Of a DNA stretch of 64,000 nt, positions 66-31,185 are shown piece by piece. The first letter of the stretch is position 1; every line of letters begins with the position of its first letter. The position numbers and the translations under genes are program-made. Under the pieces are notes generated by a model. That model was not told the DNA's origin. It worked only from the letters and a program-made list of their open reading frames with translations, and ran no database searches. Origin of the DNA: an uncultured delta proteobacterium (GTDB taxonomy: Bacteria; Desulfobacterota; Binatia; UBA9968). The DNA is taken from assembly GCA_963771465.1 (NCBI GenBank), contig CAVYTU010000019.1:128001-192000 (forward strand), written 5' to 3'.

Positions 66-1814
66 TTAGAAATTATCCGCCTGAAAAAGGATCTTGCCGC
101 CGACCATGGTGAGCAGCGGTTTAATTTTCCTGATCTCTCTTTCGGGAACGGTGAAGTAATCGTTGTTCAGAACCACGAGATCGGCATATTTGCCACGCTC
201 CAAGGAGCCCAAAACTTTCTCTCTCTCGACGTACTCTGCCGCCCAGACGGTGCCGGTTTTAAGAGCCAGCACGCGATCGACTCTTTCCTTGCCGGTGTAA
301 ACTTTGCCTTCGATTTCTCGATTCACCATCGTATCGAGATAGTGGAAAACAGTGCCGACCTTAAAAATTTCGCGGTCGTCGACCTCGAACACCGTTTTCA
401 CCCCGCCATCGATCAGGCTCTTCATAGGAGCTACCCAGGCGAGGTACTTTTCTCCATAATCGCGCAGTATTTCGGGTGAGTCCTCGACATACTTGGGCGC
501 GCAGCTCATGTAAATATTGAGCTGCTTGAGCTTTGGAATCTGATCGGGACGCGGATTTAAGGCGCAATGGTCGATGGAATGGCGCTTGGCGCGGATCTGC
601 TCATCAGTGAGTCCGGCTCGGGCGCTACCCTTTTCAATCGCCTCTAGCATGATATCGAGCGCCTTGTCCCCAGCCGTGTGCGTTCCGGCGATGCGCAGTC
701 CGGCGGCGACCGCGTTTTCAAGAAATTCGGGGAGCCCTTCGTTGAAGACCTCACGATCCTTAATCTCTTTGGGTGCGTCTGTTATGGTTGTCAGTAGACC
801 AGGATAGGATTGGTCCGTACCCCTCGTGCTCGCCCCTATAAACCAGACGTAATCGGTGCCGTATCCGCTTACGCCTTGCATTTCGGGAACCCCCTGGATG
901 GGCGTACCAAGGCTGGGCGTATAGGCAAACCTCAGTCCGATGTCGCCTCTTTTATCGAGGAGCTGGTATGCGGCCAATGCCTTCACGGATCGCATAGAAC
1001 TGGACCACGTGGTGATGCCGTAGCTCGCCCAGCGTAGATTTTCTTCCTTATATAATCCGGCCAGCTGATCTAAACTCTTGACCAAGAAGTCCGACCCAAT
1101 GATCCGGTTTAAAGTATTCGAGGAAAAGCCGTCTTCCCGCATCAGTCCCGGTTCCAAAGGGCCGGACCAAATGGTTTTAACAATCTCCATCGATTTGCTA
1201 TTCAGAATCGACGTGGTGCGCACCCGAAGGTATACGGGATTGTTGGGCGCGATCTGATCCAACTCGGTTCTATGGATGAGCCCCCTGCGTGAAGCTACGA
1301 TGCCGTTTAAAATCTTGCCGTCCTTGCCCACCGCCTCGTTGGGCAATTGCAGTGAAATCCATTCGCCGGGTTTCTTTTTCGCCACCTCCTGGCGCACCGC
1401 GTCGAGAGTTTTCTTTTTGACGCTGTCCCAGGTTTCTCCGGCTTGAGTGCGGATGCGCGTGCGCACCGCGGAACTCTCCTCGGCATCGAGCGCGTAGTCG
1501 AATAGATGCGAGTGGGTATCGATGATGCCCGGCACGACGGTGCGTCCTTTGAGGTCGACGATTTTCGTCGCGGGCCCTCTCAGTGCAAGCATTCGCTGGT
1601 TAGTACCGCCAGCCAAGACTTTCCCTTCGCGAATCGCCAACGCCTGGACAATAGTCCCAGGATTCGACGATGTTGTCTTATCGTCCATGGTCGCGATCTT
1701 GCCATTGTGCAAGATCATATCGGGATAGTTGACCAACTCCGGCGGCACAGTTTGGGCCCAAGAACGGCTTGCCAGAAAAGCGAGAAAGAGAACGAAAGAA
1801 GTAAATTTTTTCAT
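66..1814 (-). CDS. Secreted metal-dependent amidohydrolase (Amidohydro_3/YtcJ-like), copy AH1
   Basis: Signal peptide ending SWA|Q; ILHNGKI N-terminal beta motif; DLKGRTVVPGIIDTHSH (HxH); GTHTAGD; IDHC; C-terminal GSLERGKYADLVVL...TMVGGK; GGAG RBS upstream. Confidence 0.9.
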   Translation of the reverse strand: MKKFTSFVLFLAFLASRSWAQTVPPELVNYPDMILHNGKIATMDDKTTSSNPGTIVQALAIREGKVLAGGTNQRMLALRGPATKIVDLKGRTVVPGIIDTHSHLFDYALDAEESSAVRTRIRTQAGETWDSVKKKTLDAVRQEVAKKKPGEWISLQLPNEAVGKDGKILNGIVASRRGLIHRTELDQIAPNNPVYLRVRTTSILNSKSMEIVKTIWSGPLEPGLMREDGFSSNTLNRIIGSDFLVKSLDQLAGLYKEENLRWASYGITTWSSSMRSVKALAAYQLLDKRGDIGLRFAYTPSLGTPIQGVPEMQGVSGYGTDYVWFIGASTRGTDQSYPGLLTTITDAPKEIKDREVFNEGLPEFLENAVAAGLRIAGTHTAGDKALDIMLEAIEKGSARAGLTDEQIRAKRHSIDHCALNPRPDQIPKLKQLNIYMSCAPKYVEDSPEILRDYGEKYLAWVAPMKSLIDGGVKTVFEVDDREIFKVGTVFHYLDTMVNREIEGKVYTGKERVDRVLALKTGTVWAAEYVEREKVLGSLERGKYADLVVLNNDYFTVPEREIRKIKPLLTMVGGKILFQADNF

Positions 1815-1895
1815 AGCTCCTCCTTTTTATTGGACCATCACTCGGTCACCACTCTTTACTGCGTTCCGCCCTGGCTTTGCAATCGCACAAAAGGT

Positions 1896-2330
1896 CTATT
1901 TTTTGCCCTTCTCAACCGGATATTTTTTCTTCACCCACTCTTTAAAGGCATCGCCCATGATCGAGATATTGCGATAGTCATAGTCGTCGCGGAGGGACAG
2001 ATAGGCTTCTTGGATCAGCTCGCTCTGCGGGCAATCGCAGTAGAGAATCACCCGGCCCGCCTTGGGAACCTCGTTCATCCGTTTTTCCAGTTCCGCCATC
2101 GGCAGCGAGCGCGCGCCGGGGATGTGTGACTGCTGAAAATCTTTCGCGGGTCTGAGATCGACGAGAATCATCGCTTCACGCGCCGTGAGATAATACTTCA
2201 CCCGCTCCATCGGCACGACTGCGACCGGCTCCTCCGAGCCGTGGCCAGCGAGGGCGACACAGGACCAGAGTCCGATGAATGCCACCAAGCCAATAAGCAG
2301 CATTCGCGACATTCTGTGCATTTGCAGCAA
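1896..2330 (-). CDS. Secreted single-domain rhodanese-like protein Rh1 (YCDCP loop)
   Basis: Signal peptide ending ALA|GH; LVDLRPAKDF-HIPGARSLP; VILYCDC; GDAFKEW-KKYPVE. Confidence 0.88.
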   Translation of the reverse strand: MLQMHRMSRMLLIGLVAFIGLWSCVALAGHGSEEPVAVVPMERVKYYLTAREAMILVDLRPAKDFQQSHIPGARSLPMAELEKRMNEVPKAGRVILYCDCPQSELIQEAYLSLRDDYDYRNISIMGDAFKEWVKKKYPVEKGKK

Positions 2331-2401
2331 GAACCGTTTGGACGATTGAATTTCTTCAATGCATCGATCGGTTTGAACTAACTACACGGGTCATCGTTTC
2401 G

Positions 2402-4251
2402 CTATTCAATCACTCCCGGCGCTTCCTTGCCGCCGAAATCCGCCACCTGTAGACCGTGGGTTTTGCCTCTCAACGCCGAGTTCTCATTGACGATCTTGCC
2501 CGCCACCATAGTAAGAATCGGCGTCACCGTGCCGATCTCCTTCTCCGGCACCGTGAAATAATCGCGGTTGAGTACCAGCAGATCAGCCAACTTTCCCAAC
2601 TCCAGGGAGCCCAGAACTTTTTCTTTTAAAACATATTCCGACGCCCATACCGTGGCCATCTTTAACGCGGTCACTCGGTCGATCTTCTCTCGCCCTGCGT
2701 AAACTTTGCCATTGACGTCGCGAGTCACCAGGAGCTCGAGATAGTAGAACGGCCCCTTGGTCGGCGTGTAATGAATATCGGTTTCGAGAACCGTCTTCAC
2801 ACCGGCATCAATCAAGCTCTTCGCCGGCGCGACCCAGTTCAAATATTTTTCACCATAGTCACGCAGCACTTCCGGACTGGCGTTTTCGATATACTTGGGG
2901 CTGCAACTGACCATGATACCGAGCTGCTTCAAGCGCGGCATCTGCTCCGGCCGAGGGTTCATCGTGCAGTGATCGACCGTATGGCGCTGCGCTTGGATCT
3001 GCTGCGGCGACATGCCTGCCTTCTTGCTTCCCTCTTCGATGATGTCCATCACTTGATCGAGCGTGAAGTCGCCGGCGACATGGGTGTTGCTGAAGCGCGC
3101 CCCGCGAGCGACGATTTCCTCCAAGACCTTGCGCCGATAATCGCCGGCGTCGAGACGCGACATTTCGCGGGATTTGATTTCCGGCGGCGCGTCGGCAACC
3201 GATTTTAGCTGCGGGTACGGAGCCGTCGGCGCTCACCAGGCTGATGCCGTTGGGCCAAAGGAACTCCGATCCTTGTCCTTCCATCAGCTCCATGTAGCCG
3301 CGCACCATCGCCGGTCCCTGGGAAGTTCCGGTGATGAGACTGCCCAAACCGTAAGCGAAACGCACGGTCATCTCGCCCTTTTGATCGAGCAAGCGGTAAG
3401 CGCGGATGGTGTTCAACGCCGACGTCGAAGACGACCAAGTGGTAACGCCGTAGGCGGCCAATTCCTCTTGTTCTTTTTTGTAGAGGTCGGCCAAGACATT
3501 GAAGCTTGCCGTCGAGAATGATGTCGGTCTGCAGCGATCGCCGAATACTCGCGCTCCAGACGATGCCGTCTGCGCTGATCTCTTCATCCAGCGCACCGTA
3601 ATAATTTTTGAACGCTTCCAGCGCTCGGCTGTTAAACAAGCCGCGATTACCCGCTTGGATGAATATCGGATGATCGCGCGAGATTTTATCCAGCTCTTCT
3701 TTGGTGAACATCTTGAGATCGGTCATCGCCACTTTGATGTCCACTGGCTTATCGTCTTTAAACACACGGTTCGGCAACCGTACCCAGATCCACTGCCCGG
3801 GTTTAGCGCTTTGCGCCTCCTTTCCGGCGGTTTCCAAAGCGCCTTTCCTCAACTCCTCCCAGGTGCGACCTTTGACCGTGGGTTTGCGCAGTTCGGGCAC
3901 GCTCCTGCCCCAGTGATCCATGGTGTATTCCATCGCGTGGTAGTGCGTGTCGATGATTCCCGGCACGACGGTTCTGCCGCGTAAATCTATGACCTCAGTC
4001 TTGGGGCCTTTCAGCGCCAGAATCTTGCTATTCGGTCCCTGCGCCAGAATTTTTCCGTCCCTTAGCGCCAGCGCTTGGCTGATCGTGCCGGGACTCGCGG
4101 AGGTCGTTTTGTTATCCATGGCAACGACCTTGCCGTTGTGCAGAATCGTTTCCGGATAACGGATCAATTCCGCCGGTATCGTTTGCGCCCAAGCGAGGCG
4201 CAAAGGCAGCAGAGCAAAAACTAGCAACAGTAAAGAAAATCGCTTTGTCAT
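2402..4251 (-). CDS. Secreted Amidohydro_3/YtcJ-like amidohydrolase AH2, broken by two +1 frameshifts in this assembly
   Basis: Pieces 3205..4251 (signal peptide, DTHYH), 2859..3596 and 2402..3163 (NTHVAGD, VDHC, GSLELGKLAD). Removing one base near 3505 (ILDGK|FNVLADL) and one near 3219 (ADGS|YPQL) restores colinearity with AH1. Confidence 0.85.
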
Positions 4252-4281
4252 ATGAACCTCCCTTCTGGTTCACCTCACGAG

Positions 4282-4731
4282 TTATTTCTTCGCTCCCGTC
4301 TCAACCGGATACTTGCGTTTTAACCAGTCTTGATACGGATCTGCCAGCACGGCAGTGTTGCGATAACCGTAATCTTTGAGCACTTGATACGCTAGCTCGA
4401 TGATCTGATTCTGCGAACAATCGCAGTAAAGCACCACACGGCTTGACTGTGGGATCTCGCGGAAACGCTTCTCCAAGTCTTTCATCGGCAGCGAGCGCGC
4501 GCCGGGCAATCTGGATTTTTGGAACTCCATGGCCGGCCGCAAATCAATCAGCACCATCTTCTCTCTCGCGTCGAGAAAGCCCTTGACCTGCTCTGCGGTC
4601 ACCGTGACCACGTCGTCCTCAGTGCCATGGCCGGCCTGGATGATGCCTGGCCAAATTAGCAACAACGCCGTCACCGTTCCGACCAGCGGTCTTAAGTTTG
4701 CCACGGCGGAGTGAATCAACCGAGCGATCAT
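4282..4731 (-). CDS. Secreted rhodanese-like protein Rh2 (YCDCS loop)
   Basis: Signal peptide ending IQA|GH; LIDLRPAMEF-RLPGARSLP; VVLYCDC; clear paralog of Rh1. Confidence 0.88.
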   Translation of the reverse strand: MIARLIHSAVANLRPLVGTVTALLLIWPGIIQAGHGTEDDVVTVTAEQVKGFLDAREKMVLIDLRPAMEFQKSRLPGARSLPMKDLEKRFREIPQSSRVVLYCDCSQNQIIELAYQVLKDYGYRNTAVLADPYQDWLKRKYPVETGAKK

Positions 4732-4741
4732 CTAGCAGGCT

Positions 4742-6548
4742 TTATTTTGCGGCGCCGAATCTTAACCCGACGGCGCTCAATCCTTCGCTCTTGGCGAACT
4801 GTGGCGCCGTGTAGACCGGCTTGCCGGCTACCGCAGTCATCATAACGTTTATCTTTGACAACTCTTGATCAGGGGTACTGAGGTAGTCGCGGTCGATGAT
4901 GACAAAGTCCGCCCATTTGCCGGGCTCCAGCGAGCCAAGCTGATTGTCACGCAAGACATACTCCGCCGCCCAGCGCGTAAACATCTTGAGCGCAGTTGTC
5001 TTGTCCACCGCTTGTTTCGCACCCCAGACGCGCCCCTGGCTGTCCTGTCGCGTAACGGCGTACTTGATGTGCGCGAACGCGCCACCCTCTTTGTTGTGCA
5101 CTCTGCGGTCGTCCATTTCCATGACGACTTTGCCGCCGGCGCGCAGGATGGTTTGCACCGGTGCGTTAAGCTCGTGGGCATATTTCTCGCCGTAGTCGCG
5201 CGAGATGTCGGCGGCGTCTTCAATATAGCGCGGCGCGCAGCTCCAGATAATGTCGAGCTTCTTGCCGCGCTCGACCTGATCGGCGCGCGGGCTCATGCCG
5301 CAATGGTCGATGTTATGTTTGCGGGCGCGAATTTCGTCCGGTGTCAGCCCGGCCTCCGCGCTGGCTTTTTCAATCACATCGAGAAACCGATCCACCGCGC
5401 CGTCGCCGTAAACATGAGTGCCGGAAATTCTTTGGCCGGCTCCCACCGCCGCACGCATAATTTTATACTCCGCCTCGGCCTCGCATTTCTCCCGCGATTT
5501 GATCTCTTTCCTGGCATCGACTGTCGTGCATTGGCGCGGATAGCTACTGTCCAATGCGGAAAGCGAAACGCCGATGGCCCACAGAAAATCCGTGCCGTGG
5601 CCGGAAATATTACCGATACGCTTATAGAATTCCGCGGCGCCGGATGAGCCGGCCGCGCCCATGCGGTGCGAATACGCGAATCGGATCGGCAATTCGCCGC
5701 GATTGTCCAAGAGAACGAACGCGTTGAACACTTTCACGGTCGGCAAGGACGACGACCAAGTCGTCACGCCATGAGCACCCCACGCCTGCAATTCCTTTTT
5801 ATAAATCGCCGCCAACGTTTGGGGTCGCTTCACCAAGATCTCGCCGATCAGAGTGCGCATCGATCCAGAACCGATCGGTCCGCGCGGTTTCCCTTGGTTG
5901 TCGGTCTGGATCTCTTCGGGCAGCGCTCCGAAATATTCGCTGAACAGGTTGAAAATATGGCTGTTGGCGCGCCGGTCCGTGCCACGCAACTGAACAACGA
6001 TGGGATTGCTCGGCGCCAGCTCGTCCATCTCCTTGAGCATCATTTTATTGCCGAACTCCTCGGCCACGCTGCTCGGCAAGAGTTGCACATGGATCATCTT
6101 CCCGGCGCCGGCTTCGGCGATCTTCGCTTTTAGCTGCGCCACGGCGTCTGCCACCGATTTCACCTGCAGCGGAGTTTGCCGGTACTGTTTGAGTTCGGGC
6201 TCGAGAACTTCGAGATCATTAGCCCAATTGGCCGGCGCGTAGTCGAACAGATGGGAATGGGTATCGATGAAGCCGGGGACGATCGATTTTGCCTTTGAGA
6301 TCGAGCCGGATCGTCTTGGGACCGGCAAGGTTGATAATCTCAGCATTGCTTCCCACCGCCATCACTTTGCCGTCGCGCACGGCGAGCGCTTGGGCGATCG
6401 AGAAGCGCTCATCGACGGTAAGAACTTTTCCGTTGTGATAGACGGCATCGGCAAAGATCACCATACCCTTGCCGGTCTGTGCGGAGGCCTGGAAAGCAAG
6501 AAGCGAAACGAGAGAACACAAAAGCCAAGTGGAAATTTTTAAACTCAT
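4742..6548 (-). CDS. Secreted Amidohydro_3/YtcJ-like amidohydrolase AH3, one +1 frameshift in a homopolymer
   Basis: 6219..6548 (signal peptide, YHNGKVLT, LDLKGK) joins 4742..6346 (SIVPGFIDTHSH, GTHVYGD, IDHC, GSLEPGKWAD) if one T of the run at 6287-6290 is removed. Confidence 0.87.
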
Positions 6549-6728
6549 AAGTGCTCCTAACCGGCGGTTTAGTTATCTCAGATGATTCCTGCTGATACGA
6601 ATTCTTGTTAGTTGGGATCGTGTTAAGTGGTGAATGGCTACCTTGCTTAATCACCACCAAGGACACCAAGCGCACGAAGGCGTCAAAACTTTTCATCTTA
6701 AACTTTGTGTCCTTCGGGGTGCGAGGTC

Positions 6729-7160
6729 CTAGCGCATGCCGCTCGGCCGGCGCCCCGTTTCGACCGGAAACTTGCGCTTTTCCCAACCCTGAAACCCATC
6801 TAGCATGACCGCGATGTTTTTATACCGTTCGTCTTCGAATAGTTGAAAGACCGCGTCCGGGATATCGTTTGACGGCATCGCGGCATAAATCACGACCCGT
6901 CCCGATTTGGGAATCTCGCCGAGCCGTTTTTCTAATTCGGTCGCCGGGATCGAGCGCGATCCGGCGAGCCGCTTCTCTTGGAATTCTTGCGCCGGCCGCA
7001 AATCGATGAGTATAAATTTTTCGCCAGCGTCGAGCAAAAGTTTAAGCCGATCAGCCGCGATGGTCGTGACATCCCGGTTCTCATGCCCGGCATTGGCAAG
7101 CGCCGGGCAAAACGCAAGGAGCCAGAGCGTTAGGACAACAACTAGGTGCGCCGCCGTCAC
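6729..7160 (-). CDS. Secreted rhodanese-like protein Rh3 lacking the catalytic Cys (YAAMP loop)
   Basis: Signal peptide ending ANA|GH; LIDLRPAQEF-RLAGSRSIP; VVIYAAMP where paralogs have YCDC; LDGFQGW. Confidence 0.85.
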   Translation of the reverse strand: MTAAHLVVVLTLWLLAFCPALANAGHENRDVTTIAADRLKLLLDAGEKFILIDLRPAQEFQEKRLAGSRSIPATELEKRLGEIPKSGRVVIYAAMPSNDIPDAVFQLFEDERYKNIAVMLDGFQGWEKRKFPVETGRRPSGMR

Positions 7161-7240
7161 ACTTCGATTCTCTCTTTTTGCGGTCTATACGTTCTTTGCG
7201 GTTAAACTTCTTCCCTCTGAGGTGCGCGCAGTTCGCGTTC

Positions 7241-9067
7241 TTACTTCGCTCCCGTCCGTTGATAAACCACCTTGCCGCCGACGATCGTCAAATCGACGAG
7301 TAACTCGTCGATCTTATCGTCCGCCACCGCCATGTAGTCGCCGTTAAACACCACCATGTCGGCGTACTTGCCCTTCTCGAGGGAACCGAGCATTTTTTCA
7401 TCACCCATGAACTTCGCCGCATTATAGGTCGTCATCATCAAGGCTTGCTTGCGATCGATCGCTTGGTTTTTCCCCCACACGCGCCCTTCGCGCGCGCTGC
7501 GCGTGCTTTTATCCGTCCTTGTGACGAATCGTTCGATGCGCCACACCGGCGGCTCGTCCGGCTTGCCGCCTTCGAGGTGAACGTTCACGCCGGCACCGAG
7601 CAATTCCTTCACCGGCTGCATGCTGTGCATCTGTTCGCCGTATTGGGAGAAAACCATTTCTTCGCCGCGCACCACGCGCTGGCTGAATATCTCCGAGTTC
7701 AAACCGAAGGCTAATTTATCGCCCAATTGTTTGGCCAACGTGATCGACTTCTGATCCCAGATCAGGTTGTGGTCGAGCGCGTTGCGGCCGAGCATTTTAT
7801 GCACTTTGATTTCGGACTGCTTCTCGGCGTCGGCGAGACTTTCCAAAACGATCGTCGTCGCGCCGCTGCCCATGTTGTGATTGCCGCTGATATTCCAGCC
7901 GTGCTTGCGCAGCAATTGCAGCGTCGTCCATTCGGTGTCGCGCTTTTCCCCGAGGGTCAAATCGCCCCACTGCTTGCCAGTCCACTCGGGCCCAGTCCAT
8001 TTGTTACGTCCATAGAGTCCGCCTTTGACCTCGGCGTGCGCGTTGCGCTTGGCTTCGTTGGTGAGAATGCCGCCGTCGTCCGACGCGCCGTCCACCGGAC
8101 CGACCGCGGCGCCGACGATGCGAATCATATCGTCGCCAAGACTAAAGTTCACCAAGTTAGGCGTGCGCCGAAGTATCTGGTCGGCCATGGGATTTTGCCG
8201 CGCGAAATCTAGCGTCGGGCGAATGCGCATCTTGAGGCGATCTTGATGATGCATCTGGCTGACGATCGTGACCGTGTAACCGCTGGCGTGGCCGGTGATC
8301 GTGGTCACGCCGACTCTGAGAAATTGCTCGATGATCTCCGCCTGCTCTTTAAATATCTCTTCGGTCAACTCCGGCCAATCGCGCAGGTTCCAGCCGACAA
8401 AACCGAGCGCCTGGCTGAACATTTGCCCTGTGGGGTTACCACTCGAATCCTTGACGACCTGAAAGTGATCTTTGCGTAGCCCAGCGGCGAACGCCTTTTC
8501 CAGCATGAGCGTGTTGACGACGCCCTCCGAGCTGGATAGCGAAAGCATCAGCGGATTATCAGGCGCGAGCTTGTCCAAATCCTTGGCGGTCAATTTGGAA
8601 AGATCGCTGACAAACTCGTCCGCCATGCGTACGTAAACGTTGGAACCGGGTTTCGCTTGCGACACCAGCTTGCGCACCTGCTCGAGCATCTCGGGCACGT
8701 TCTTGCCGCGAACTTTTTTGCCGACCACGCCATTGACCATGGTGTCTTTATACAAGTCGCCGCCGGCAAAGGCGTTGTCGCCGTCACTATCGATGAATCC
8801 CGGCACCAAGCTTCTTCCCGCCAGATCGACACGGCGGGTCGCCGGGCCGGCCATTCGTTGAATCTCGGCGTTGGTGCCGACAGCGAGTATCTTGCCATCG
8901 CGCACCGCCACCGCTTGCGCGACGGTGAAATTTTTGTCGGCGGTGAGAACTTTGCCGTTGTAGAGAATCGAGTCGGCATAACGGATCAACTCCGGCGGCA
9001 GACTCTGCGCCGCGCCCTGGGTCACGCCAACCGCTAGCACGATCAATGCGTAAAGAATCGCTCGCAT
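7241..9067 (-). CDS. Secreted Amidohydro_3-like protein AH4 with degenerate metal site (DSDGD instead of DxHxH)
   Basis: GGAGG RBS before ATG 9067; signal peptide; ILYNGKVLT; DLAGRSLVPGFIDSDGD; GNHNMG; LDHN; GSLEKGKYADMVV...TIVGGK. Confidence 0.87.
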   Translation of the reverse strand: MRAILYALIVLAVGVTQGAAQSLPPELIRYADSILYNGKVLTADKNFTVAQAVAVRDGKILAVGTNAEIQRMAGPATRRVDLAGRSLVPGFIDSDGDNAFAGGDLYKDTMVNGVVGKKVRGKNVPEMLEQVRKLVSQAKPGSNVYVRMADEFVSDLSKLTAKDLDKLAPDNPLMLSLSSSEGVVNTLMLEKAFAAGLRKDHFQVVKDSSGNPTGQMFSQALGFVGWNLRDWPELTEEIFKEQAEIIEQFLRVGVTTITGHASGYTVTIVSQMHHQDRLKMRIRPTLDFARQNPMADQILRRTPNLVNFSLGDDMIRIVGAAVGPVDGASDDGGILTNEAKRNAHAEVKGGLYGRNKWTGPEWTGKQWGDLTLGEKRDTEWTTLQLLRKHGWNISGNHNMGSGATTIVLESLADAEKQSEIKVHKMLGRNALDHNLIWDQKSITLAKQLGDKLAFGLNSEIFSQRVVRGEEMVFSQYGEQMHSMQPVKELLGAGVNVHLEGGKPDEPPVWRIERFVTRTDKSTRSAREGRVWGKNQAIDRKQALMMTTYNAAKFMGDEKMLGSLEKGKYADMVVFNGDYMAVADDKIDELLVDLTIVGGKVVYQRTGAK

Positions 9068-9199
9068 GGCCAACCTCCTCTGCTAATTGACACTACGAAA
9101 GCGAATAACGGACGGCATGACGCGTGTCCCGCCCGGCGTCGAGTTAGAGATTTCTTACTTTGCGTTCTTTGCGGCTCATCCGCTCTTTTTCCCGGACTT

Positions 9200-11340: not shown

Positions 11341-12903
11341 TTACCAGCGGAACCGAAGACCCGTGTTGAGCGAATGCATGGAGCAAGATCGGCCGGCACC
11401 TTTGCCAGATGCCGCCTCTGCGTTGCTATCCTTACAACCGCTGCCTATTTGGGTTCTAAGAGGCGTATTGGACGAGGTCCAGTAGTGATGCCACATGCCA
11501 ACACCCAAGCTCGGTTGAATCCAATACCATAGTGCCGTTTCCCGGTTAAGGATGGTTTGGGAATGAAAAGACCCCGCACCCGGCGATGCATCGCAGCCGG
11601 CGCCGCAATTCATGTCCGCGCGCTCAAAACCAAAGGAGAGCATGACCGTGTTCGGCGTCGTTTGACTGCCGGTCAGGAAACCCTTAGGGCTCCATACCAT
11701 GAGCTGGTTGTCGATCGTCCAACCTTTGCCCGACATGCCTCTACCCAGTCCAGGATCCACGCTGTTATATCGGGTAAAAACATAGACCGCGCGGAACATG
11801 TACGGACCGACCGTCCACTTCAAACCAGGAATAAATACATGGCCCCATCCGGAACCAACGTTTTGAGAGCTACAAACGTCGTCGAGTTGGCAATTAGCAA
11901 CATTCTGCCCGAGAGCGGCGGGACGGAAATAATCAAACCGTCCACGTCTTTCCGCATTACGAACGCGAATTTCAACAGCGCTCGTATCATCAAGGGAATT
12001 CTCCGGTCGATCCAGTGAATGCCCCTGATAACCTACACCCATTTCCAACCCGGAGAGCCATTTGCTCTTGGTGTTGGCGAACGGTTTGCCACCGACATAC
12101 GCCATGATGCCTTTGCGGTCGTCGTTGATGAACTCCTGATGCGTTCCCTGGCGGCTGGTCACGTAGTTGAGGAATAGATCGTATTCACCCGTCCCGATAT
12201 CTACGCCCTCCCAGCCAATACCCATGCCTGCGTGCGATCCGTCGCCACCCCAGGCAAAGCCGTCAAGGATCACGCTATGCTCCATCTTGCCGTCGTTATC
12301 GGAGCTACGGCCAACGTGAGTCTTGCCGGCCCCTCGTCTGAGACCGATGGAGAAATACGGAAAATACGGATTCAACTGGTTGAAACCGACCATGAACTCA
12401 TTGTCACGGAATAAAGCCTCCCGCTCGGCCGTCTCGCCGTCGATTGAAGTCTCAAACTGGAAAAAACAATCCTGCCAACACATTGTCGTGTAGAGCCGGT
12501 TACGCCGAGGAAACAACTCGCCTTGTGTGGCACCCGAGCTGCGCTCTTGGCCGTCGTTAAAGTTCGGCTTGCCGCCAATAATATTGTAGTTGTAGATGTT
12601 GATCCGGTACGTCGTGTTGAACGACCAGCTCTTGTCCGCCGCCGCGATCGTCATGCCGCGTCCCGGTCGATACGAAAAGGTCGGCATCTCGGCCGCAGCC
12701 GCCGTCGCTTCCTTCTTCATCTCCAACTGCTGATATCTCAGCCGCTCGATCTGATCCTTCAGAGGCTCGATTTTTTGAACCTCCGACTCCAACGCTTTGA
12801 TCTGCTCCTCGATGTCGCTCTGTGCCTGTACCGGCCAGACCGCAGCGAGGCTAGCGACCAATCCGAAACTCATCGCTGTGAAAAACTTGCCCTGTTTTGC
12901 CAT
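11341..12903 (-). CDS. Outer-membrane porin-like beta-barrel protein (OprO/OprP-like architecture), copy 1
   Basis: GGAGG RBS before ATG 12903; signal peptide VQA|Q; N-terminal coiled coil (IEEQIKALESEVQKIEPLKDQIERL); amphipathic beta strands; C-terminal GLRFRW. Confidence 0.7.
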   Translation of the reverse strand: MAKQGKFFTAMSFGLVASLAAVWPVQAQSDIEEQIKALESEVQKIEPLKDQIERLRYQQLEMKKEATAAAAEMPTFSYRPGRGMTIAAADKSWSFNTTYRINIYNYNIIGGKPNFNDGQERSSGATQGELFPRRNRLYTTMCWQDCFFQFETSIDGETAEREALFRDNEFMVGFNQLNPYFPYFSIGLRRGAGKTHVGRSSDNDGKMEHSVILDGFAWGGDGSHAGMGIGWEGVDIGTGEYDLFLNYVTSRQGTHQEFINDDRKGIMAYVGGKPFANTKSKWLSGLEMGVGYQGHSLDRPENSLDDTSAVEIRVRNAERRGRFDYFRPAALGQNVANCQLDDVCSSQNVGSGWGHVFIPGLKWTVGPYMFRAVYVFTRYNSVDPGLGRGMSGKGWTIDNQLMVWSPKGFLTGSQTTPNTVMLSFGFERADMNCGAGCDASPGAGSFHSQTILNRETALWYWIQPSLGVGMWHHYWTSSNTPLRTQIGSGCKDSNAEAASGKGAGRSCSMHSLNTGLRFRW

Positions 12904-12965
12904 ACACACCTCCCTAAAATATTACGAACTTTCCAGCTCTTACTAAGTCTAATTCGATGTCGCGA

Positions 12966-13275: not shown

Positions 13276-14838
13276 TTACCAGCGGAACCGAAGACCCGTG
13301 TTGAGCGAATGCATGGAGCAAGATCGGCCGGCACCTTTGCCAGATGCCGCCTCTGCGTTGCTATCCTTACAACCGCTGCCTATTTGGGTTCTAAGAGGCG
13401 TATTGGCCGAGGTCCAGTAGTGATGCCACATGCCAACACCCAAGCTCGGTTGAATCCAATACCACAGTGCCGTTTCCCGGTTAAGGATGGTTTGGGAATG
13501 AAAATTCCCCGCACCCGGCGATGCATCGCAGCCGGCGCCGCAATTCATGTCCGCGCGCTCAAAACCAAAGGAGAGCATGACCGTGTTCGGCGTCGTTTGA
13601 CTGCCGGTCAGGAAACCCTTAGGGCTCCATACCATGAGCTGGTTGTCGATCGTCCAACCTTTGCCCGACATGCCTCTACCCAGTCCAGGATCCACGCTGT
13701 TATATCGGGTAAAAACATAGACCGCGCGGAACATGTACGGACCAACCGTCCACTTCAAACCAGGAATAAATACATGGCCCCATCCGGAACCGACGTTTTG
13801 AGAGCTACAAACGTCGTCGAGTTGGCAATTAGCAACATTCTGCCCGAGAGCGGCGGGACGGAAATAATCAAACCGTCCACGTCTTTCCACATTACGAACG
13901 CGAATTTCAACAGCGCTCGTATCATCAAGGGAATTCTCCGGTCGATCCAGTGAATGCCCTTGATAACCAACACCCATTTCCAACCCGGAGAGCCATTTGC
14001 TCTTGGTGTTGGCGAACGGTCTGCCACCGACATACGCCATGATTCCTTTGCGGTCGTCGTTGATGAACTCCTGGTGCGTTCCCTGGCGGCTGGTCACGTA
14101 GTTGAGGAATAGATCGTATTCACCCGTCCCGATATCTACGCCCTCCCAGCCAATACCCATGCCTGCGTGCGATCCGTCGCCACCCCAGGCAAAGCCGTCA
14201 AGGATCACGCTATGCTCCATCTTGCCGTCGTTATCGGAGCTACGGCCAACGTGAGTCTTGCCGGCCCCTCGTCTGAGACCGATGGAGAAATACGGAAAAT
14301 ACGGATTCAACTGGTTGAAACCGACCATGAACTCATTGTCACGGAATAAAGCCTCCCGCTCGGCCGTCTCGCCGTCGATTGAAGTCTCAAACTGGAAAAA
14401 ACAATCCTGCCAACACATTGTCGTGTAGAGCCGGTTACGCCGAGGAAACAACTCGCCTTGTGTGGCACCCGAGCTGCGCTCTTGGCCGTCGTTAAAGTTC
14501 GGCTTGCCGCCAATAATATTGTAGTTGTAGATGTTGATCCGGTACGTCGTGTTGAACGACCAGCTCTTGTCCGCCGCCGCGATCGTCATGCCGCGTCCCG
14601 GTCGATACGAAAAGGTCGGCATCTCGGCCGCAGCCGCCGTCGCTTCCTTCTTCATCTCCAACTGCTGATATCTCAGCCGCTCGATCTGATCCTTCAGAGG
14701 CTCGATTTTTTGAACCTCCGACTCCAACGCTTTGATCTGCTCCTCGATGTCGCTCTGTGCCTGTACCGGCCAGACCGCAGCGAGGCTAGCGACCAATCCG
14801 AAACTCATCGCTGTGAAAAACTTGCCCTGTTTTGCCAT
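13276..14838 (-). CDS. Outer-membrane porin-like beta-barrel protein, copy 2 (4 aa differ from copy 1)
   Basis: Near-identical to 11341..12903 at an offset of 1935 bp. Confidence 0.7.
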   Translation of the reverse strand: MAKQGKFFTAMSFGLVASLAAVWPVQAQSDIEEQIKALESEVQKIEPLKDQIERLRYQQLEMKKEATAAAAEMPTFSYRPGRGMTIAAADKSWSFNTTYRINIYNYNIIGGKPNFNDGQERSSGATQGELFPRRNRLYTTMCWQDCFFQFETSIDGETAEREALFRDNEFMVGFNQLNPYFPYFSIGLRRGAGKTHVGRSSDNDGKMEHSVILDGFAWGGDGSHAGMGIGWEGVDIGTGEYDLFLNYVTSRQGTHQEFINDDRKGIMAYVGGRPFANTKSKWLSGLEMGVGYQGHSLDRPENSLDDTSAVEIRVRNVERRGRFDYFRPAALGQNVANCQLDDVCSSQNVGSGWGHVFIPGLKWTVGPYMFRAVYVFTRYNSVDPGLGRGMSGKGWTIDNQLMVWSPKGFLTGSQTTPNTVMLSFGFERADMNCGAGCDASPGAGNFHSQTILNRETALWYWIQPSLGVGMWHHYWTSANTPLRTQIGSGCKDSNAEAASGKGAGRSCSMHSLNTGLRFRW

Positions 14839-14912
14839 ACACACCCCCCTTTAAATTTTGTACTCGAACTAATATTACTTAGGTCTTATAAGAGCTAACT
14901 ACCAGATCTAGG

Positions 14913-25812: not shown

Positions 25813-28800
25813 CTAATACCGTTTGCCCAGATCCTGCAGCGCTTTCAACGCTTCGGCGTCATCGGCAGTGAGCGAAAGAATTTCGCGATACTTTTGTTCA
25901 GCTTGGTTGATCTTCCCCAACTGGGCATAGGATTGACCTAGCGCAAAGCGCAAATCGGTGCGGCGCCGCCGCATGCGCAATGCCTGCTCATAAGCCTCAG
26001 CGGCTTTCTCCCACATCGCAAGCTTGTAGTAGACCGCGCCCATTTCTGAATAGAAAGTTGCCGAGTCCTCGCCCTTGGCACGCGTCTTTTCCAATAACAC
26101 GCGCGCTTCCTGCAGCAGTTTCTTGCTCTGGGCTTCGTCCTTCAAACGCTGAGCACTCGCTAGGTTCCACCTTCCCCAGGCGAGCAGAACGGCCGGATGT
26201 TCCGGGTGGAGATCGCGCGCCTGCACGAACCATTTCTCCGCTTCCGGAAGATCGCCGGAATGAAGCGCGATATTTCCCAAGCCCAGATAAGGTAAAACCT
26301 CTTTGCTGCCCATTTTGATTATTTTCCCGTACACTTCCTTGGCATCGGGCAAATAAAATTCGTCGCTCATCGCCAGAACGTCAGGAATGTATTCTGCGCC
26401 CTGCTCCAGGGCTGCAAACGCTTCCTTGGCGCCCTCGGCGCTTTTGTCCTGCTCCAAAAGAATTTTCATCTTGAGCAGGTGAAATCTCGGGTTCTTGGGT
26501 TCGAGGCGAATTGCCTCCTCTAATTCATTCAACGCCCGGCCGCGTGAAACGCTCGCCGAGTAGGATTGTGCCATGTAAAAATGGTGCATGGCTTGCGGCA
26601 CCGGCAGCGCTGACGTTTTTAACCACGGCGGGCTGTCGACCAGAAATGGCGTCATGATCTTACGGTTGAGTTCGGTGGTGGAGCGGCGCAAACTCTTCGG
26701 CGCGGAGAATTCCAACTGTGCGCCGTCGTCGGTATTGATCGACGCGCCTTTGGAAAACGCCAGAAAACCTTCTCGATTCATCCGGTAAAAACCCTGCACC
26801 GCGTAGACATCGGAAAGGCCGAGATAATCGAGATCCGATTGCAGCATTTTGTTGTTGTCATAAATCGCTTTGACCGCCGGATAATTGAACTTCTGTTCCG
26901 TCTTGCTGCCGATGAGAAGGAAGTCGCTTTCTTTCATGCTCCACAGTGAAACGTAGGGGAACGCCTCGGCGAAGGTCCGAAACACCATGCGGAAGTCGTC
27001 CGGCGACATCGAATAATTGTGAAACCACTGGGCGAAAATGCCGTCGTTTTTGATCTTCGATTTGACGACGGAATAAAATTCGCGCGTGTAAAGGTTGGCG
27101 ATGCCGGCGATCCACGGGTTGGACGGCTCGGCGGTAATGACATCGTAGAATTTCGGCGTGGCGAGAATATAATTTTTGCCGTCGGTGGGAATCACCCGCA
27201 CCCGCGGGTCTTCGAGGACGCTCGAATGGCGCGAATGACGCGCATTGCGCGATAACCGGTCGATGGCGCCGCGGTAGTTAAGATCCTCGGAGCGCTTCAT
27301 CAGCTCGGTGCGCGCTTCAGGTTCCATCACACCTTTGTAATAGAGCCGCTCTTCTTTCGCGTTATACCAAATCCGGCTCTTGGAATCGTCGGCGGGGAAT
27401 GTCACGCCGTCGGGAAACTTATCGATCTTGACCGAGGCGCGGTCAAAAAACTTACTCGCTTCAATCATGGCCGGTTCGATTTCGATGACTTCGATGTCCT
27501 TGAGCGACTTAAAAGTTGCCAACGCCTTGGCCGACATGCCGCTGCCGAGACCGATGGTCAGCGCGGTTTCGGCTTTCGGGTTAAGCATCATGGCGATGTA
27601 GCTGGTCATTAACTGGCTCAGCGCGTCGCCATAGGAGCCGTCGATTTTGCCGTTGGAGCGAAAATACAGGTAATCGCTGCCGGTGATCCGATGAACGCTC
27701 ACCGTAGTGGTCAAACCTTCGCGGTAAAACAGTACGTCGTCGCGCTTCATCTCTTCCCGCCGCAAGCTGTCGGTCGGCAGCGACTCGTAACGGTCGGCAT
27801 ACACCGTTACGCCGCTGGTGAGGATGCTCGGATCCCAGCGGCGAATCTTGAACGGCACGATCGCCGCCAGCACCAACACGGCGACACCGAGAGTATAACG
27901 CGGCAACGGCGCGAGCTTGTGATCGCAAATCAACAGCCAAGCGCCGATCAAAAGATTCATCACCACGGCGAAAATGATCGTGTTCTGCACCCCGAGGTTG
28001 GGGATCAAAATAAATCCGCCGGCAAACGCGCCGAGTACGGCGCCGACGGTATTGGCCGCATAGGAACTGCCGACGCCGCTACCGACGCGGTACAAGCTTT
28101 GGGTGAACAAACGCGCGACCAGAGGAAACGTCATGCCCAAGAGAATCGTTGGCACGAACATCACCAGCGCCGACAGAAATATTTGCAGATAGAGAAACAC
28201 GGTAAAGGTGTCGCCGAAGCCGTGCAGCAACCGGACGAAGATCAATGGCAGTTTTTCAAAAAGCGGAATCGTCGCCAACGCTGATAAGCCGACCCAGAGC
28301 TCGATCAAACCGAAGGTGCTCAAACGCGCCTCCCGGCCGCCCAACACCCGTGCGTAGAAAAACCCGCCGAGCGCTAGGCCGATCAAGAAAGTTACTAACA
28401 TCGTCGAGAAAGAATAAATCGAGCTGCCAATGACCAGGGTCAAGGCGCGTGTCCAAGCGTTCTCATAAACCAAGGAGGCGAAGCCGGAGAGCGCGAACGA
28501 TGTTAAAACCACCCAGGCAAGCGCACGGTTCGATGACGACGAGCCGTTCTCGGTTGCCGGCGCATCGCTCACCGTCTCCGCCGTTTCCTGCTCGGCGGGC
28601 AATGGCATTTTGTCGCGCAGCCTGTCGACGATGAGAATCACCGCGGCGATCACCAGGTTGACACTAGCGGCAACGAACACCGTCGCGCGCATGCCGAGAG
28701 TCGGGATCAGTACAAAACCGCCCGCGGCGCAGCCGATCACCGCGCCGAGCGTGTTGGTGGCGTAGAGATCGCCAACCCGACGGCCGAACTGCGCATAACT

Positions 28801-29259
28801 CTTGACGAAGAACCGGCTCAGCACCGGCAACGTCGCGCCCATCAGCAAGGTTGGAAAAACCAACAAAACAAAGGACAGAAAAAACAGCACGAGATTAAAT
28901 ATAAATGGATACGATTGGTTGAGGCCGAAGATCGGGCCGTAAAGTTTTTGCGCGCCGGCGAACAGCCACGGCACGAGAAATCCGTAAACACCGACACCGG
29001 CTTCGAGAATACCGTAGAGAACAAAATCATTTTTGCCGCGGTCGGCGATCTTGCCGAACCAATAGCTGCCGATCGCTAGTCCCGCCATGAACGCCGACAA
29101 CACCGTCGCGATCGCGTACGTCGTGTTGCCGAAAATCTGCGTCAGCATACGCGTCCACACCACTTGATAAATCAAACCCGCGGCGCCGGAAAAGAAAAAA
29201 CAGAACAGTCCGACGATGAGAAGCCAGTCTTGTTTGGAACGCGGCACACCATCCGTCAT
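25813..29259 (-). CDS. Fused membrane domain / spermidine-synthase-like SAM-binding domain / TPR protein
   Basis: Two membrane repeats (SGAAGLIYQVVW, SGFASLVYENAW; LYATNTLG, YAANTVG); IGLGSG, EIEP, DG-NY, DVITAEPSNPWIAG; C-terminal TPRs. Confidence 0.88.
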   Translation of the reverse strand: MTDGVPRSKQDWLLIVGLFCFFFSGAAGLIYQVVWTRMLTQIFGNTTYAIATVLSAFMAGLAIGSYWFGKIADRGKNDFVLYGILEAGVGVYGFLVPWLFAGAQKLYGPIFGLNQSYPFIFNLVLFFLSFVLLVFPTLLMGATLPVLSRFFVKSYAQFGRRVGDLYATNTLGAVIGCAAGGFVLIPTLGMRATVFVAASVNLVIAAVILIVDRLRDKMPLPAEQETAETVSDAPATENGSSSSNRALAWVVLTSFALSGFASLVYENAWTRALTLVIGSSIYSFSTMLVTFLIGLALGGFFYARVLGGREARLSTFGLIELWVGLSALATIPLFEKLPLIFVRLLHGFGDTFTVFLYLQIFLSALVMFVPTILLGMTFPLVARLFTQSLYRVGSGVGSSYAANTVGAVLGAFAGGFILIPNLGVQNTIIFAVVMNLLIGAWLLICDHKLAPLPRYTLGVAVLVLAAIVPFKIRRWDPSILTSGVTVYADRYESLPTDSLRREEMKRDDVLFYREGLTTTVSVHRITGSDYLYFRSNGKIDGSYGDALSQLMTSYIAMMLNPKAETALTIGLGSGMSAKALATFKSLKDIEVIEIEPAMIEASKFFDRASVKIDKFPDGVTFPADDSKSRIWYNAKEERLYYKGVMEPEARTELMKRSEDLNYRGAIDRLSRNARHSRHSSVLEDPRVRVIPTDGKNYILATPKFYDVITAEPSNPWIAGIANLYTREFYSVVKSKIKNDGIFAQWFHNYSMSPDDFRMVFRTFAEAFPYVSLWSMKESDFLLIGSKTEQKFNYPAVKAIYDNNKMLQSDLDYLGLSDVYAVQGFYRMNREGFLAFSKGASINTDDGAQLEFSAPKSLRRSTTELNRKIMTPFLVDSPPWLKTSALPVPQAMHHFYMAQSYSASVSRGRALNELEEAIRLEPKNPRFHLLKMKILLEQDKSAEGAKEAFAALEQGAEYIPDVLAMSDEFYLPDAKEVYGKIIKMGSKEVLPYLGLGNIALHSGDLPEAEKWFVQARDLHPEHPAVLLAWGRWNLASAQRLKDEAQSKKLLQEARVLLEKTRAKGEDSATFYSEMGAVYYKLAMWEKAAEAYEQALRMRRRRTDLRFALGQSYAQLGKINQAEQKYREILSLTADDAEALKALQDLGKRY

Positions 29260-29613
29260 AGAGTATCTCCTGCAAACATCCGCAAAGAATTCAAAGATTG
29301 ATAGCAAGCCGTGGGTTAACTGTAAAGGGTAACGCGCGCCAACAAATGCTTCGCGCAGCGTCGTTGCGATGCGGGACAATCATTCCGCGCACGAGTGAAA
29401 ACGATGCGCGCCGGCCACCGCGTTCGTTGACTTCAAGAAAAAATTCATATAGGCATTAGGACCGTCCAAACTTCTAGAATCTGAAATTCATCCCCGTATT
29501 ATTACTCGGGTTTGGTCTCAAATGTTCGTGGTTGGTTTCAAATGCAGGACCTATTTTTTACGCTGACGTAGATATCGCGGCCAGAATAAACATAAACGAT
29601 TCGGAGGAAAGCA

Positions 29614-31185
29614 ATGGCAAACGCAAAACGAGACGGGGCATCGCCGGAAGAAGCCAGAGATCTACGGAGTGCCATCGAATGGATGAAAAAAGAAGGGGAT
29701 ATCATCGTCACCGATAAAGAGGTCGACCCCAACCTGGAACTCACCGGCATTCAAAAAAAACTCGACGGTGGCTGCCCAATCCTTTTTAATAACGTCAAAG
29801 GCAAACCGCAGCATCGCTGCGTCACTAATTTGTTCGGTGATATGAACGTCATCAACAAAATGTTCGGCTGGAAAGACCACGCCGACCGGACCCGAAAATT
29901 GGCCTACGCCATCACTCATCCGATCGCGCCGATCGTCGTCGAGCAAAAAGATGCGCCGGTGCAAGAAGAAGTTTATGAGAAACCGGCGGAAGCAAACGAC
30001 TACGTCGTGCCGATCCGTCATACCGACATCGAACCCGAATTGACCGTCGGTTCCGGCAATCGATTGATTGCCGGCGAGTATTTTGAAGGCGGCACCGACC
30101 TCGGTTATAACCGTATGAACTTTCGCTGGGGTAACGTCGGAACTTTTCAAATTTCCCCCGGCTCGCACATGTGGCAGGTCGTCAGCAAGTATTACAAAGA
30201 CAACAAAGTGGTGCCGATCACGATGAACTTCGGCTTGCCGGTGGCCGGTTCGCTGCTCGCGGGCGCGGGTTTCGATTACGTGATCCTGCCGCAAGGCTGT
30301 GACGAAGTCGGCATCGCCGGCGCCGTGCAAGGCGCGCCCATGCGTTTGGTCAAAGCGCGCACGGTGGACGCCTACGCGTTGGCGGACGCGGAAGTGATTC
30401 TCGAAGGCTACGTCAACCCGCGCGACCGCCGCTTTGAAACCGCCGAGTCGGAGAAAGCCGGCATCCAAGGCCGTTTCCATTTCCATCCGGAATGGGCCGG
30501 CTACATGGGCAAAGCTTACAAAGCACCGACCTTTCACGTCACCGCCGTCACCACGCGCAAACGCGAAGGCAAACCGATTATTTTCCCGCTCGGCGTACAC
30601 ACTCTTGACGATCACAACATCGACACCACCGTGCGTGAGGCGGCGATGTTCGAGCTCTGTGAAAGAATGCAGCCAGGCATCATCATGGACGTGAACATTC
30701 CCTATTGCATGACCGACTGGGGCGGCGCGATCATTCAAGTGAAAAAACGCAACCGCATTGAAGAAGGCTGGCAGCGCAATTTCATGGCGGCGATCCTCGC
30801 CACCTCGCAGGGTTCCCGTCTCGTCGTCGCGGTGAGCGAAGATAGCGATCCCTATGACATGGATGATATCATGTGGAACTTGACCACTCGGGTCAATCCC
30901 AAAACCGACATCATCAATCCGCTTCCCGGCGGTCGCGGCCAGACCTTCATGCCCGCCGAGCGTATGACCGCCGGCGAAAAAGAATGGACGGCATCGAATA
31001 CCAGTTTCGAAGGCGGTATGGGCATCGATGCCACCGTGCCGTTCGGTTACGAGAGCGATTTCATGCGGCCGGTTTATCCCGTCGACAGAGTCGATCTTAA
31101 AAATTGGTTTAGTGACAAAGACATTCAAAACGCCAAGAGCCGCATGCAAGGCTGGGTGCATTCCTTGGCGCGCACAGGCAGATAA
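29614..31185 (+). CDS. UbiD-family prFMN-dependent (de)carboxylase, possibly of the phthaloyl-CoA decarboxylase-like clade
   Basis: DLRSAIEW, EVDPNLE, ILFNNVKG, LGYNR, AEVILEG, PEWAGYMG, DMDDIMWNLTTR, MGIDAT. Confidence 0.85.
   Translation: MANAKRDGASPEEARDLRSAIEWMKKEGDIIVTDKEVDPNLELTGIQKKLDGGCPILFNNVKGKPQHRCVTNLFGDMNVINKMFGWKDHADRTRKLAYAITHPIAPIVVEQKDAPVQEEVYEKPAEANDYVVPIRHTDIEPELTVGSGNRLIAGEYFEGGTDLGYNRMNFRWGNVGTFQISPGSHMWQVVSKYYKDNKVVPITMNFGLPVAGSLLAGAGFDYVILPQGCDEVGIAGAVQGAPMRLVKARTVDAYALADAEVILEGYVNPRDRRFETAESEKAGIQGRFHFHPEWAGYMGKAYKAPTFHVTAVTTRKREGKPIIFPLGVHTLDDHNIDTTVREAAMFELCERMQPGIIMDVNIPYCMTDWGGAIIQVKKRNRIEEGWQRNFMAAILATSQGSRLVVAVSEDSDPYDMDDIMWNLTTRVNPKTDIINPLPGGRGQTFMPAERMTAGEKEWTASNTSFEGGMGIDATVPFGYESDFMRPVYPVDRVDLKNWFSDKDIQNAKSRMQGWVHSLARTGR

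Follow-up and report, generated by a model that had tools for sequence, protein, structure and literature searches.

An alternating array and the island around it

A row of seven co-oriented genes lies at positions 66-9073 on the minus strand of a 64,000-nucleotide (nt) stretch of DNA from an uncultured delta proteobacterium (assembly GCA_963771465.1, contig CAVYTU010000019.1, positions 128,001 to 192,000; the whole stretch is called the window below). In the list of open reading frames (ORFs) the order is AH4-Rh3-AH3-Rh2-AH2-Rh1-AH1, where AH stands for a putatively secreted YtcJ-like amidohydrolase and Rh for a small, likewise putatively secreted protein with a single rhodanese domain. Transcription runs from high to low coordinates, and the unit is an AH gene followed by an Rh gene. 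The gene order is established, the pairs are conserved, the genes are under purifying selection and the motifs follow a clear pattern. Both families are known and their arrangement is new: as an earlier note on this DNA had supposed, no description of an AH-Rh pairing was found in the literature searched. The two proteins probably work as bound pairs in an undescribed periplasmic system, as suggested by a structure model of one pair.

In the order of transcription, AH4 (7241-9073) is an intact paralogue of 610 amino acids (aa) matching the Pfam family Amidohydro_3 (PF07969) with 116 bits. Its partner is Rh3 (6729-7160), a rhodanese-fold protein of 143 aa with a match of 38.1 bits to Pfam Rhodanese (PF00581). 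AH3 (4742-6548) is spread over two frames in the assembly (ORFs 6219-6548 and 4742-6346; the long piece scores 125 bits), and its partner Rh2 (4282-4731; 149 aa, loop LYCDCSQ, 51.1 bits) starts 10 nt past the AH3 stop. AH2 (2402-4251), which has an HYH metal motif, is found in three frames (ORFs 3205-4251, 2859-3596 and 2402-3163, with pieces scoring 42 and 101 bits) and is partnered by Rh1 (1896-2330; 144 aa, loop LYCDCPQ, 46.5 bits). The last gene of the row, AH1 (66-1814), is intact (582 aa, 140 bits); the next gene, beyond the window, is a broken CopC gene and not an Rh. All AH pieces except the middle AH2 and the short N-terminal AH3 fragments match Amidohydro_3 (42-140 bits; curated cut-off 29.7 bits), and all three Rh match Rhodanese (38-51 bits; curated cut-off 22.2 bits). 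Among the AH no NCBIfam equivalog was found. Read by eye, all seven N-termini have a positively charged start, a hydrophobic run and an AxA-like cleavage site (for example between SWA and QT in AH1 and between ANA and GH in Rh3).

The alternating co-oriented array described in the earlier note is present where it was placed, as seven minus-strand ORFs of the expected Pfam families. Its gaps, given there as about 10-180 bp, measure 80, 180, 10, 30, 71 and 81 nt from AH4 to AH1, and the paralogues are indeed well diverged (the AH are 28-43% identical to AH1, the Rh 39-50% identical). The description of four AH and three Rh is right in families and order, but AH2 and AH3 are frameshifted in this assembly, AH4 lacks the HxH motif and Rh3 lacks the rhodanese cysteine.

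On the same strand the array extends past window position 1 to C19:118188 (C19 being the contig of the window), with a total of six AH and five Rh. Beyond AH1 come, in this order, the broken CopC gene, an SBP_bac_6-like gene (381 aa), AH0 (frameshifted) and Rh0, a CopD fusion, a second SBP_bac_6-like gene (358 aa), AH-1 (frameshifted) and Rh-1; past the island lies a MoxR/BatA-type operon. The proposal that the operon continues off the window is therefore borne out by two more AH-Rh pairs, CopC, the CopD fusion and two SBP-like genes, but not by the GGAGG/TTG signal at window 31-16 from which it was drawn: the frame that begins there is short and ends after about 34 codons. The earlier note had overlooked the frameshifts, the copper genes of the array and the usual absence of Rh from the wider AH family. 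A promoter and terminator scan of the island returned sites no more numerous than in shuffled sequences, or fewer, and so carries no information on transcription units.

The CopC gene (C19 about 127500-127900, minus strand) lies between AH1 and the SBP-like gene and can be recognised only across two frames. The predicted mature N-terminus is HAYLVKS, and near-identical contigs show five indels in the CopC stretch. An intact orthologue is found in the related genome G073 (80 bits to Pfam PF04234), where the order of an AH1-type gene followed by CopC also recurs. The 590-nt interval from AH1 to the next gene was scanned for a remnant of an Rh gene with the Rh profile and all filters off; none was detected, and the interval is occupied by the broken CopC. 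The CopD gene (C19:121729-123945, equivalent to L013:13729-15945, minus strand) encodes a fusion of CopD with a monohaem cytochrome c, represented by one CxxCH motif, and a thioredoxin-like domain (AhpC/TSA-like). A TlpA-like thiol reductase role of this last domain was considered and rejected, as the domain has no CxxC. With the CopC/CopD copper-uptake pairs (PF04234, PF05425) the island shares a CopC with a predicted N-terminal His and a CopD membrane protein. It differs from them in the fusion of CopD to a cytochrome c and a CxxC-less domain, and in the position of these genes among AH-Rh pairs, to which they may be linked in function.

Recurrence of the pairs

Behind five of this genome's six AH genes comes an Rh gene, and behind AH1 comes CopC. 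Of the 24 testable AH genes in 11 related genomes, 18 have an Rh behind them at a distance of up to about 350 nt; the loci come from 12 published relatives, with one gene of G081 set aside because of a contig end and G093 as unpublished. The same was seen from the side of the rhodaneses. In 73 loci from soil metagenomes there are 51 Rh scoring 150 bits or more; for 32 of these the upstream sequence reaches 400 nt or more, and an AH stands directly upstream in 22 of the 32. For array-type Rh the count is 22 of 24 testable cases. Of the ten metagenome Rh without an upstream AH, seven have another loop (C[DE]CKPYD) and represent a stand-alone type which is also found in this genome, at C15:768767-769130. 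The distance between AH and Rh goes down to 3-10 nt. The neighbourhood survey that the earlier note had suggested supports the adjacency of the two genes from both sides.

In G073 and G075, which belong to other genera, the islands are syntenic with this one and contain matching pair types along with the CopD fusion and the SBP genes. In G073 the Rh1 orthologue is located behind the AH2 orthologue. Single AH-Rh pairs stand alone in G024, G009, G092 and G065, and in G075 the order of the pairs is different. In phylogenetic trees, each of the AH orthologue groups AH-1, AH0, AH2, AH3 and AH4 has a counterpart among the groups of downstream Rh. The claim of an old two-gene unit, duplicated and kept as a pair, is upheld by this recurrence and by the five matched groups. 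The congruence of the two trees, which had been put forward as a check, is clear at the level of orthologue groups but not in the deep branching.

The distribution of the module is narrow. Order-wide searches of 123 genomes (tallies that include the unpublished G005, G076, G079 and G093) detected AH at E<=1e-35 in 17 and Rh at E<=1e-15 in 84, the latter mostly of a separate TGA-containing type. Array-type Rh and close AH were found in these searches in a minority of the genomes of the window's family. A further 400 genomes sampled from across the phylum contained no array-type Rh (E<=1e-35). The AH family itself is wider: of 7999 candidates scored in a protein search, 409 matched at E<=1e-10, and one contig carried several of these. 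Loci L015-L033, labelled as Terriglobia/Acidobacteria metagenome-assembled genomes (MAGs), contain AH of the same family in tandem (300-460 bits to the profile, up to seven genes). They differ from the window array in having no rhodanese and, in most cases, neither of the two AH cysteines described below. For example, L015 (Terriglobia MAG, CBDCTS010000004.1) possesses seven tandem co-oriented secreted AH with the motifs THEHP and THDHP, no cysteine pair and no Rh.

Rh-free AH arrays in other Acidobacteriota and the lack of array-type Rh in the 400 genomes point to a lineage-specific two-protein module. Among the observations that together would speak against its reading, the earlier note had listed that homologous amidohydrolases usually occur without the rhodanese. 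This is the case for the wider family, whereas the close AH in relatives are paired in 18 of 24 cases.

Active sites and a modelled complex

The AH proteins resemble YtcJ-like hydrolases (PF07969, COG1574; structures 3igh and 3icj) in their full-length Pfam match, in fold and, for AH1-AH3, in the HxH motif and the further His, His and Asp. The array AH differ from them in being putatively secreted, in tandem and paired with rhodaneses, and in a cysteine pair by the beta6 His. HxH is retained as DTHSH in AH1 and AH3 and as DTHYH in AH2, and AH4 has DSDGD instead (within FIDSDGD). The residues H379, H416 and D479 (AH1 numbering) are invariant in the AH alignment, AH4 included; their assignment as the beta5 His, the beta6 His and the beta8 Asp follows from the AH1 model and from general knowledge of the fold. 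This model has a mean pLDDT (predicted local distance difference test) of 68.9. Foldseek matched it to 3igh (E 6.6e-23, with template modelling (TM) scores of 0.59/0.69) and to 3icj (E 6.0e-22).

The cysteine pair (motifs DHC and SC) is kept in all island AH except AH4, which lacks both. In the AH1 model the two cysteines are placed at the ends of the neighbouring strands beta6 and beta7, as assigned from the model, and adjoin the metal-binding His. Among 41 AH of the wider clade, nine contain both cysteines, one contains only the first and 31 contain neither. A distant AH paralogue on C14 was tried as a candidate seleno-amidohydrolase, others being flagged '1 TGA', and was rejected: in this genome's own copy the TGA is the stop codon.

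The Rh proteins vary in the active-site loop. The canonical rhodanese cysteine, at the start of the loop, is kept in Rh1 and Rh2 (LYC) and in Rh0 and Rh-1, and is absent from Rh3 (IYA). The loop has the form CDCPQ/CDCSQ in Rh0-Rh2, CxCPPGG in Rh-1 and IYAAMPS, without any cysteine, in Rh3. Thiosulfate sulfurtransferases have a basic six-residue active-site loop. The loops of Rh1 and Rh2 (CDCPQSE and CDCSQNQ) contain no Arg or Lys and hence do not belong to that basic type. The E. coli proteins PspE (periplasmic) and GlpE (cytoplasmic) are likewise small single rhodanese domains, PspE being exported too, and both the NCBIfam and PDB matches to them are weak. The array Rh differ from these two in having a CDCPQ or CxCPPGG loop in place of the basic one, in lacking a phage-shock or glp context, and in their predicted binding to a hydrolase by a surface away from the loop.

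The best NCBIfam match of all three window Rh is NF041203, rhodanese-related (seleno)protein (Rh1 50.6, Rh2 57.0 and Rh3 44.9 bits). As the cut-off of 115 bits is not reached, the window Rh are relatives of the family and not members. The review PMC9312934 lists the CxU rhodanese ('COG0607 form 2 (CxU)') as a predicted selenoprotein of unknown function. With NF041203 and the CxU form the array Rh share a single rhodanese domain and a second redox residue two positions from the canonical cysteine. They differ in having Cys in place of selenocysteine, in adjoining an amidohydrolase and in the Cys-less Rh3.

The same genome possesses two selenocysteine relatives of the Rh, both recognisable as rhodaneses with an in-frame TGA in the active-site loop: a secreted ALYUAC protein (ALYUACPHH, C15 about 1030760-1031200, plus strand) and a membrane-protein fusion with LYCSU (LYCSUPNE, C19:34201-34587, minus strand, outside the window). 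A TGA-containing copy of the ALYUAC kind occurs about once per genome across the order. On sequence grounds, the CxC loop, together with its selenocysteine relatives, points to dithiol or selenosulfide redox chemistry rather than to classical persulfide carriage. Two residues after the predicted cleavage site a His is invariant in all 39 Rh, the Cys-less ones included. A search of the ESM Atlas with Rh2 returned generic rhodanese clusters only.

The unusual AH4 and Rh3 are not isolated. G073, G024 and G009 share the AH4 variant with this genome, G075 has it in a divergent form, and in the first three genomes Rh3 orthologues with a YAAT/YAAM loop follow the AH4-type genes. Rh behind AH4-type genes lack the cysteine in four of five genomes. 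The ratio of nonsynonymous to synonymous substitution rates (dN/dS) is 0.06-0.08 for AH4 and 0.05-0.23 in every computable orthologue pair, including AH4, Rh3 and the frameshifted genes; with dS of at least 0.8 these ratios are approximate. A conserved orthologue group with such a low ratio is not expected of a decaying AH4, and both variants appear from their sequences to be conserved orthologue groups and not products of decay.

One pair, AH4 (residues 24-610) with Rh3 (25-143), was modelled as a complex with ESMFold2 from its own alignments, in three runs beside three controls. The interface score ipSAE had a median of 0.63 (runs 0.28, 0.63 and 0.71) and the best of the three controls gave 0.00. 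At least 52% of the contacts were shared between the runs, and the partner had a pLDDT of 78 or more. In the calibration, which is only roughly valid with own alignments, 116 of 157 solved complexes and 2 of 215 mismatched pairs scored this high; in the tool's own test 7 of 44 blind neighbour pairs passed. No solved amidohydrolase-rhodanese complex is known to us, and the model is therefore unlikely to have passed by reproducing a known structure. Complex modelling of cognate against non-cognate pairs had been proposed in the earlier note; one cognate pair, AH4 with Rh3, was covered and passed against its controls.

The confident contacts of AH4 include residue 103 (past the HxH-equivalent loop), 466 (five past the SC-equivalent position) and 504/506 (the equivalent of the beta8 Asp), as placed by mapping the listed residues through alignments and secondary structure rather than from coordinates. 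On the side of Rh3 the contacts are 30, 32-36, 41-48, 85-87 and 106-121; the loop 93-99 is not among them. Rh3 residues 30-36 touch AH4 residue 506, and residues 25-29 are not among the confident contacts. Because of the AH4 contacts at 103, 466 and 504/506, the model puts the Rh on the catalytic face of the AH barrel. It supports a predicted role of the Rh as a bound accessory subunit of the AH.

Frameshifts, rival explanations and meaning

Five frameshifts are found in four of the six island AH genes within 19.6 kb, and CopC is broken as well. In the window, an extra base breaks AH3 at 6287 (L093 16487), where the frame changes at a run of four A near 6287-6290, and two extra bases break AH2 at 3502 (L093 13702) and 3218 (L093 13418), the latter not in a homopolymer. 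Logan contigs from four soil runs were compared with the 19.6-kb locus spanning the island. Contigs of the runs X1 and X3, which belong to one study, are about 99% identical to the window (for example 1865 nt with 13 mismatches and 2 gaps) and lack exactly one base at each of these three positions and at C19:125816 in the off-window AH0, that is, at all four covered sites. Removing the extra bases gives a reading that agrees with intact orthologues, which for AH2 are 610-615 aa long (P0117, P0119, P0120). Since strain contigs of such identity lack the extra bases, the AH2 and AH3 genes are intact in the population. The extra bases are either assembly errors or very recent mutations of the strain. 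Assembly error is fairly probable because other few-contig genomes of the family (G073, G072) have breaks at other places; the greater density of breaks in the island than in the remaining window is a point against it.

A more drastic view is that the island is becoming a set of pseudogenes in this strain, with real frameshifts and with AH4 and Rh3 having lost their catalytic residues. The crowding of the breaks, as opposed to one clear split gene in the remaining 55 kb of the window, and the extra base at 3218 outside any homopolymer are in its favour. It is nevertheless very improbable: the strain contigs lack the extra base at every covered site, dN/dS in the broken genes is 0.05-0.10, the AH4 and Rh3 variants form conserved orthologue groups in at least four genomes, and the breaks of G073 and G072 lie elsewhere, as expected of assembly indels.

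The split gene in the rest of the window encodes a thiamine pyrophosphate (TPP) enzyme (62741-63921, minus strand), with its N domain and C domain in separate overlapping ORFs; this is probably a further assembly frameshift. Upstream of the array, beyond two TPR genes, are two paralogous ORFs of 522 aa without a Pfam match (11341-12909 and 13276-14844, both minus strand). An ORF of 1188 aa (25813-29379, minus strand) combines a major facilitator superfamily (MFS) transporter, a spermidine-synthase-like domain and TPR repeats. Three UbiD-family decarboxylase genes (29614-31185 and 37434-38876 on the plus strand, 51748-53343 on the minus strand) lie near NMT1/THI5-like binding proteins and several TenA/haem-oxygenase-like genes (listed with 56030-58441 and 61759-62805, both minus strand).

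The reading tentatively preferred here, as quite possible, is that the pairs are lineage-specific periplasmic heterodimers of paralogous hydrolases and rhodanese-fold proteins, in which the Rh is an accessory or gating subunit and its CxC acts on the AH cysteines. In the module, a YtcJ-like (Amidohydro_3) metallohydrolase would be followed by a small rhodanese-fold protein, both exported by the Sec route, and at least five paralogous pair types, each inherited as a pair, would have arisen from it by ancient multiplication. Each Rh would be tightly associated with its own AH and would not be a free thiosulfate sulfurtransferase. In the model it rests against the barrel loops after beta1, beta7 and beta8, and its own active-site loop is not part of the contact surface. 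Where the cysteines are retained, the CxC dithiol of the Rh, a Cys version of the UxC/CxU loops of seleno-rhodaneses, may serve the AH cysteine pair as a redox or thiol-exchange centre. The paralogous pairs could give substrate breadth for the periplasmic hydrolysis of amide-type compounds, with CopC, CopD::cytochrome c and the SBP-like genes possibly supplying metal or electrons. That each hydrolase has a dedicated rhodanese partner, as the earlier note proposed, is supported by the pairing and by the AH4-Rh3 model. Its suggestion that the partner serves sulfur transfer is weakened by the CxC loop, by the existence of a Cys-less pair and by an interface without the Rh loop.

In a sulfur relay, the AH would make or need sulfane sulfur at its cysteine pair (from a thio-amide, a thiocarbamate or another C-S/C=S compound) and the Rh would carry or deliver persulfide. 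The canonical cysteine of Rh1, Rh2, Rh0 and Rh-1 would fit this, as would the AH cysteine pair, which stands beside a metal-binding His and is absent in most Rh-free relatives. Molinate hydrolase, an amidohydrolase that cleaves a thiocarbamate, is also among the distant fold matches (rank 4-5, TM about 0.4). A relay is unlikely, however, given that the CxC loop is acidic or neutral and not basic, that a Cys-less AH4-Rh3 pair is maintained under purifying selection, that the modelled interface leaves out loop 93-99, and that the island contains no sulfur-oxidation or thiosulfate genes. Less likely again is the absence of any functional coupling, with the Rh as conserved operon neighbours in one family and the complex model as a false pass. 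Almost all genomes with the pairs are closely related, and the pairs might thus persist through synteny alone; the wider AH family lives without an Rh, a similar Rh type stands alone elsewhere, and some mismatched and blind neighbour pairs do pass the tool. Against this, the pairs survive rearrangement, as seen in the four genomes with single pairs and in the different order in G075, nearly all array-type metagenome Rh have an AH upstream, gaps between AH and Rh can be as short as 3-10 nt, and the complex scored far above its controls.

The copper genes suggest another role, in which the Rh are periplasmic metal-handling partners that would join CopC and CopD::cytochrome c in loading or gating an unusual metal or thiol site of the AH. 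An N-terminal X-His is a Cu(II) site, as in the peptide GHK, and in the Rh the predicted N-terminal His is invariant even where the cysteine is missing. Both copper genes lie inside the island here and in G073, the fusion also in G075, and Rh3 residues 30-36, which adjoin the His, touch the beta8 Asp equivalent of AH4 in the model. The cleavage site, however, was read by eye, residues 25-29 of Rh3 fall outside the confident contacts, stand-alone Rh types keep the His without a neighbouring AH, and the G075 island has no CopC. Nor do we know of any amidohydrolase that is a copper enzyme. A copper-linked role is therefore rather improbable. The same low probability is given to a stronger version of the heterodimer, an obligate two-subunit periplasmic enzyme of a so far undescribed kind, in which the Rh caps the catalytic face and its N-terminal His, its CxC or both build or gate a metal-thiol centre, possibly in dependence on copper through CopC/CopD::cytochrome c.

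Several observations weigh against the preferred accessory-subunit reading. Nearly all pair-bearing genomes belong to one bacterial family and are therefore not independent. The wider AH family occurs in Rh-free tandem arrays of up to seven genes, and only one of 79 genome_contigs loci contains an Rh; that locus (L014, labelled as a Binatia MAG) does not represent an independent phylum, as its AH and Rh lie at a tree distance of 0.05-0.1 from the window family. In the deep branching, AH2 groups with AH0/AH1 and its partner Rh1 with Rh2 (84/87 support), so that it cannot be stated that the pairs always duplicated jointly. The AH of L026, L022 and L031 possess both cysteines and have no Rh in the locus. 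The correlation between AH and Rh cysteines amounts to one or two evolutionary events and has exceptions: in G075 an AH4-like gene is followed by a CDC Rh, and in L014 a Cys-less Rh stands elsewhere than behind an AH4-type gene. The island of G075 has no CopC, and in the thioredoxin-like domain of the CopD fusion no CxxC was found. Three of the four AH genes of the window region have breaks or lost motifs. The nearest solved structures, 3igh and 3icj, are both uncharacterised, so no substrate can be transferred from them. The predicted binding comes from one model of one pair with its own alignments, in which one run of three scored 0.28.

Both families are very common and are mostly annotated in generic terms. 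The AH4-Rh3 pair, Cys-less and without HxH, is a natural experiment in which binding could be separated from catalysis. If the obligate metal-thiol enzyme were true, the AH family would perform chemistry other than plain amide hydrolysis. The conserved and probably physical pairing of the two families would itself mean a new role as accessory subunit for the rhodanese fold and for the CxC/CxU/UxC rhodaneses of unknown function, and it would give a handle on the large uncharacterised expansions of secreted YtcJ-like proteins in soil Acidobacteria. For the organisms themselves, the pairing would suggest that a periplasmic activity has been multiplied and maintained under strong selection in abundant soil bacteria.

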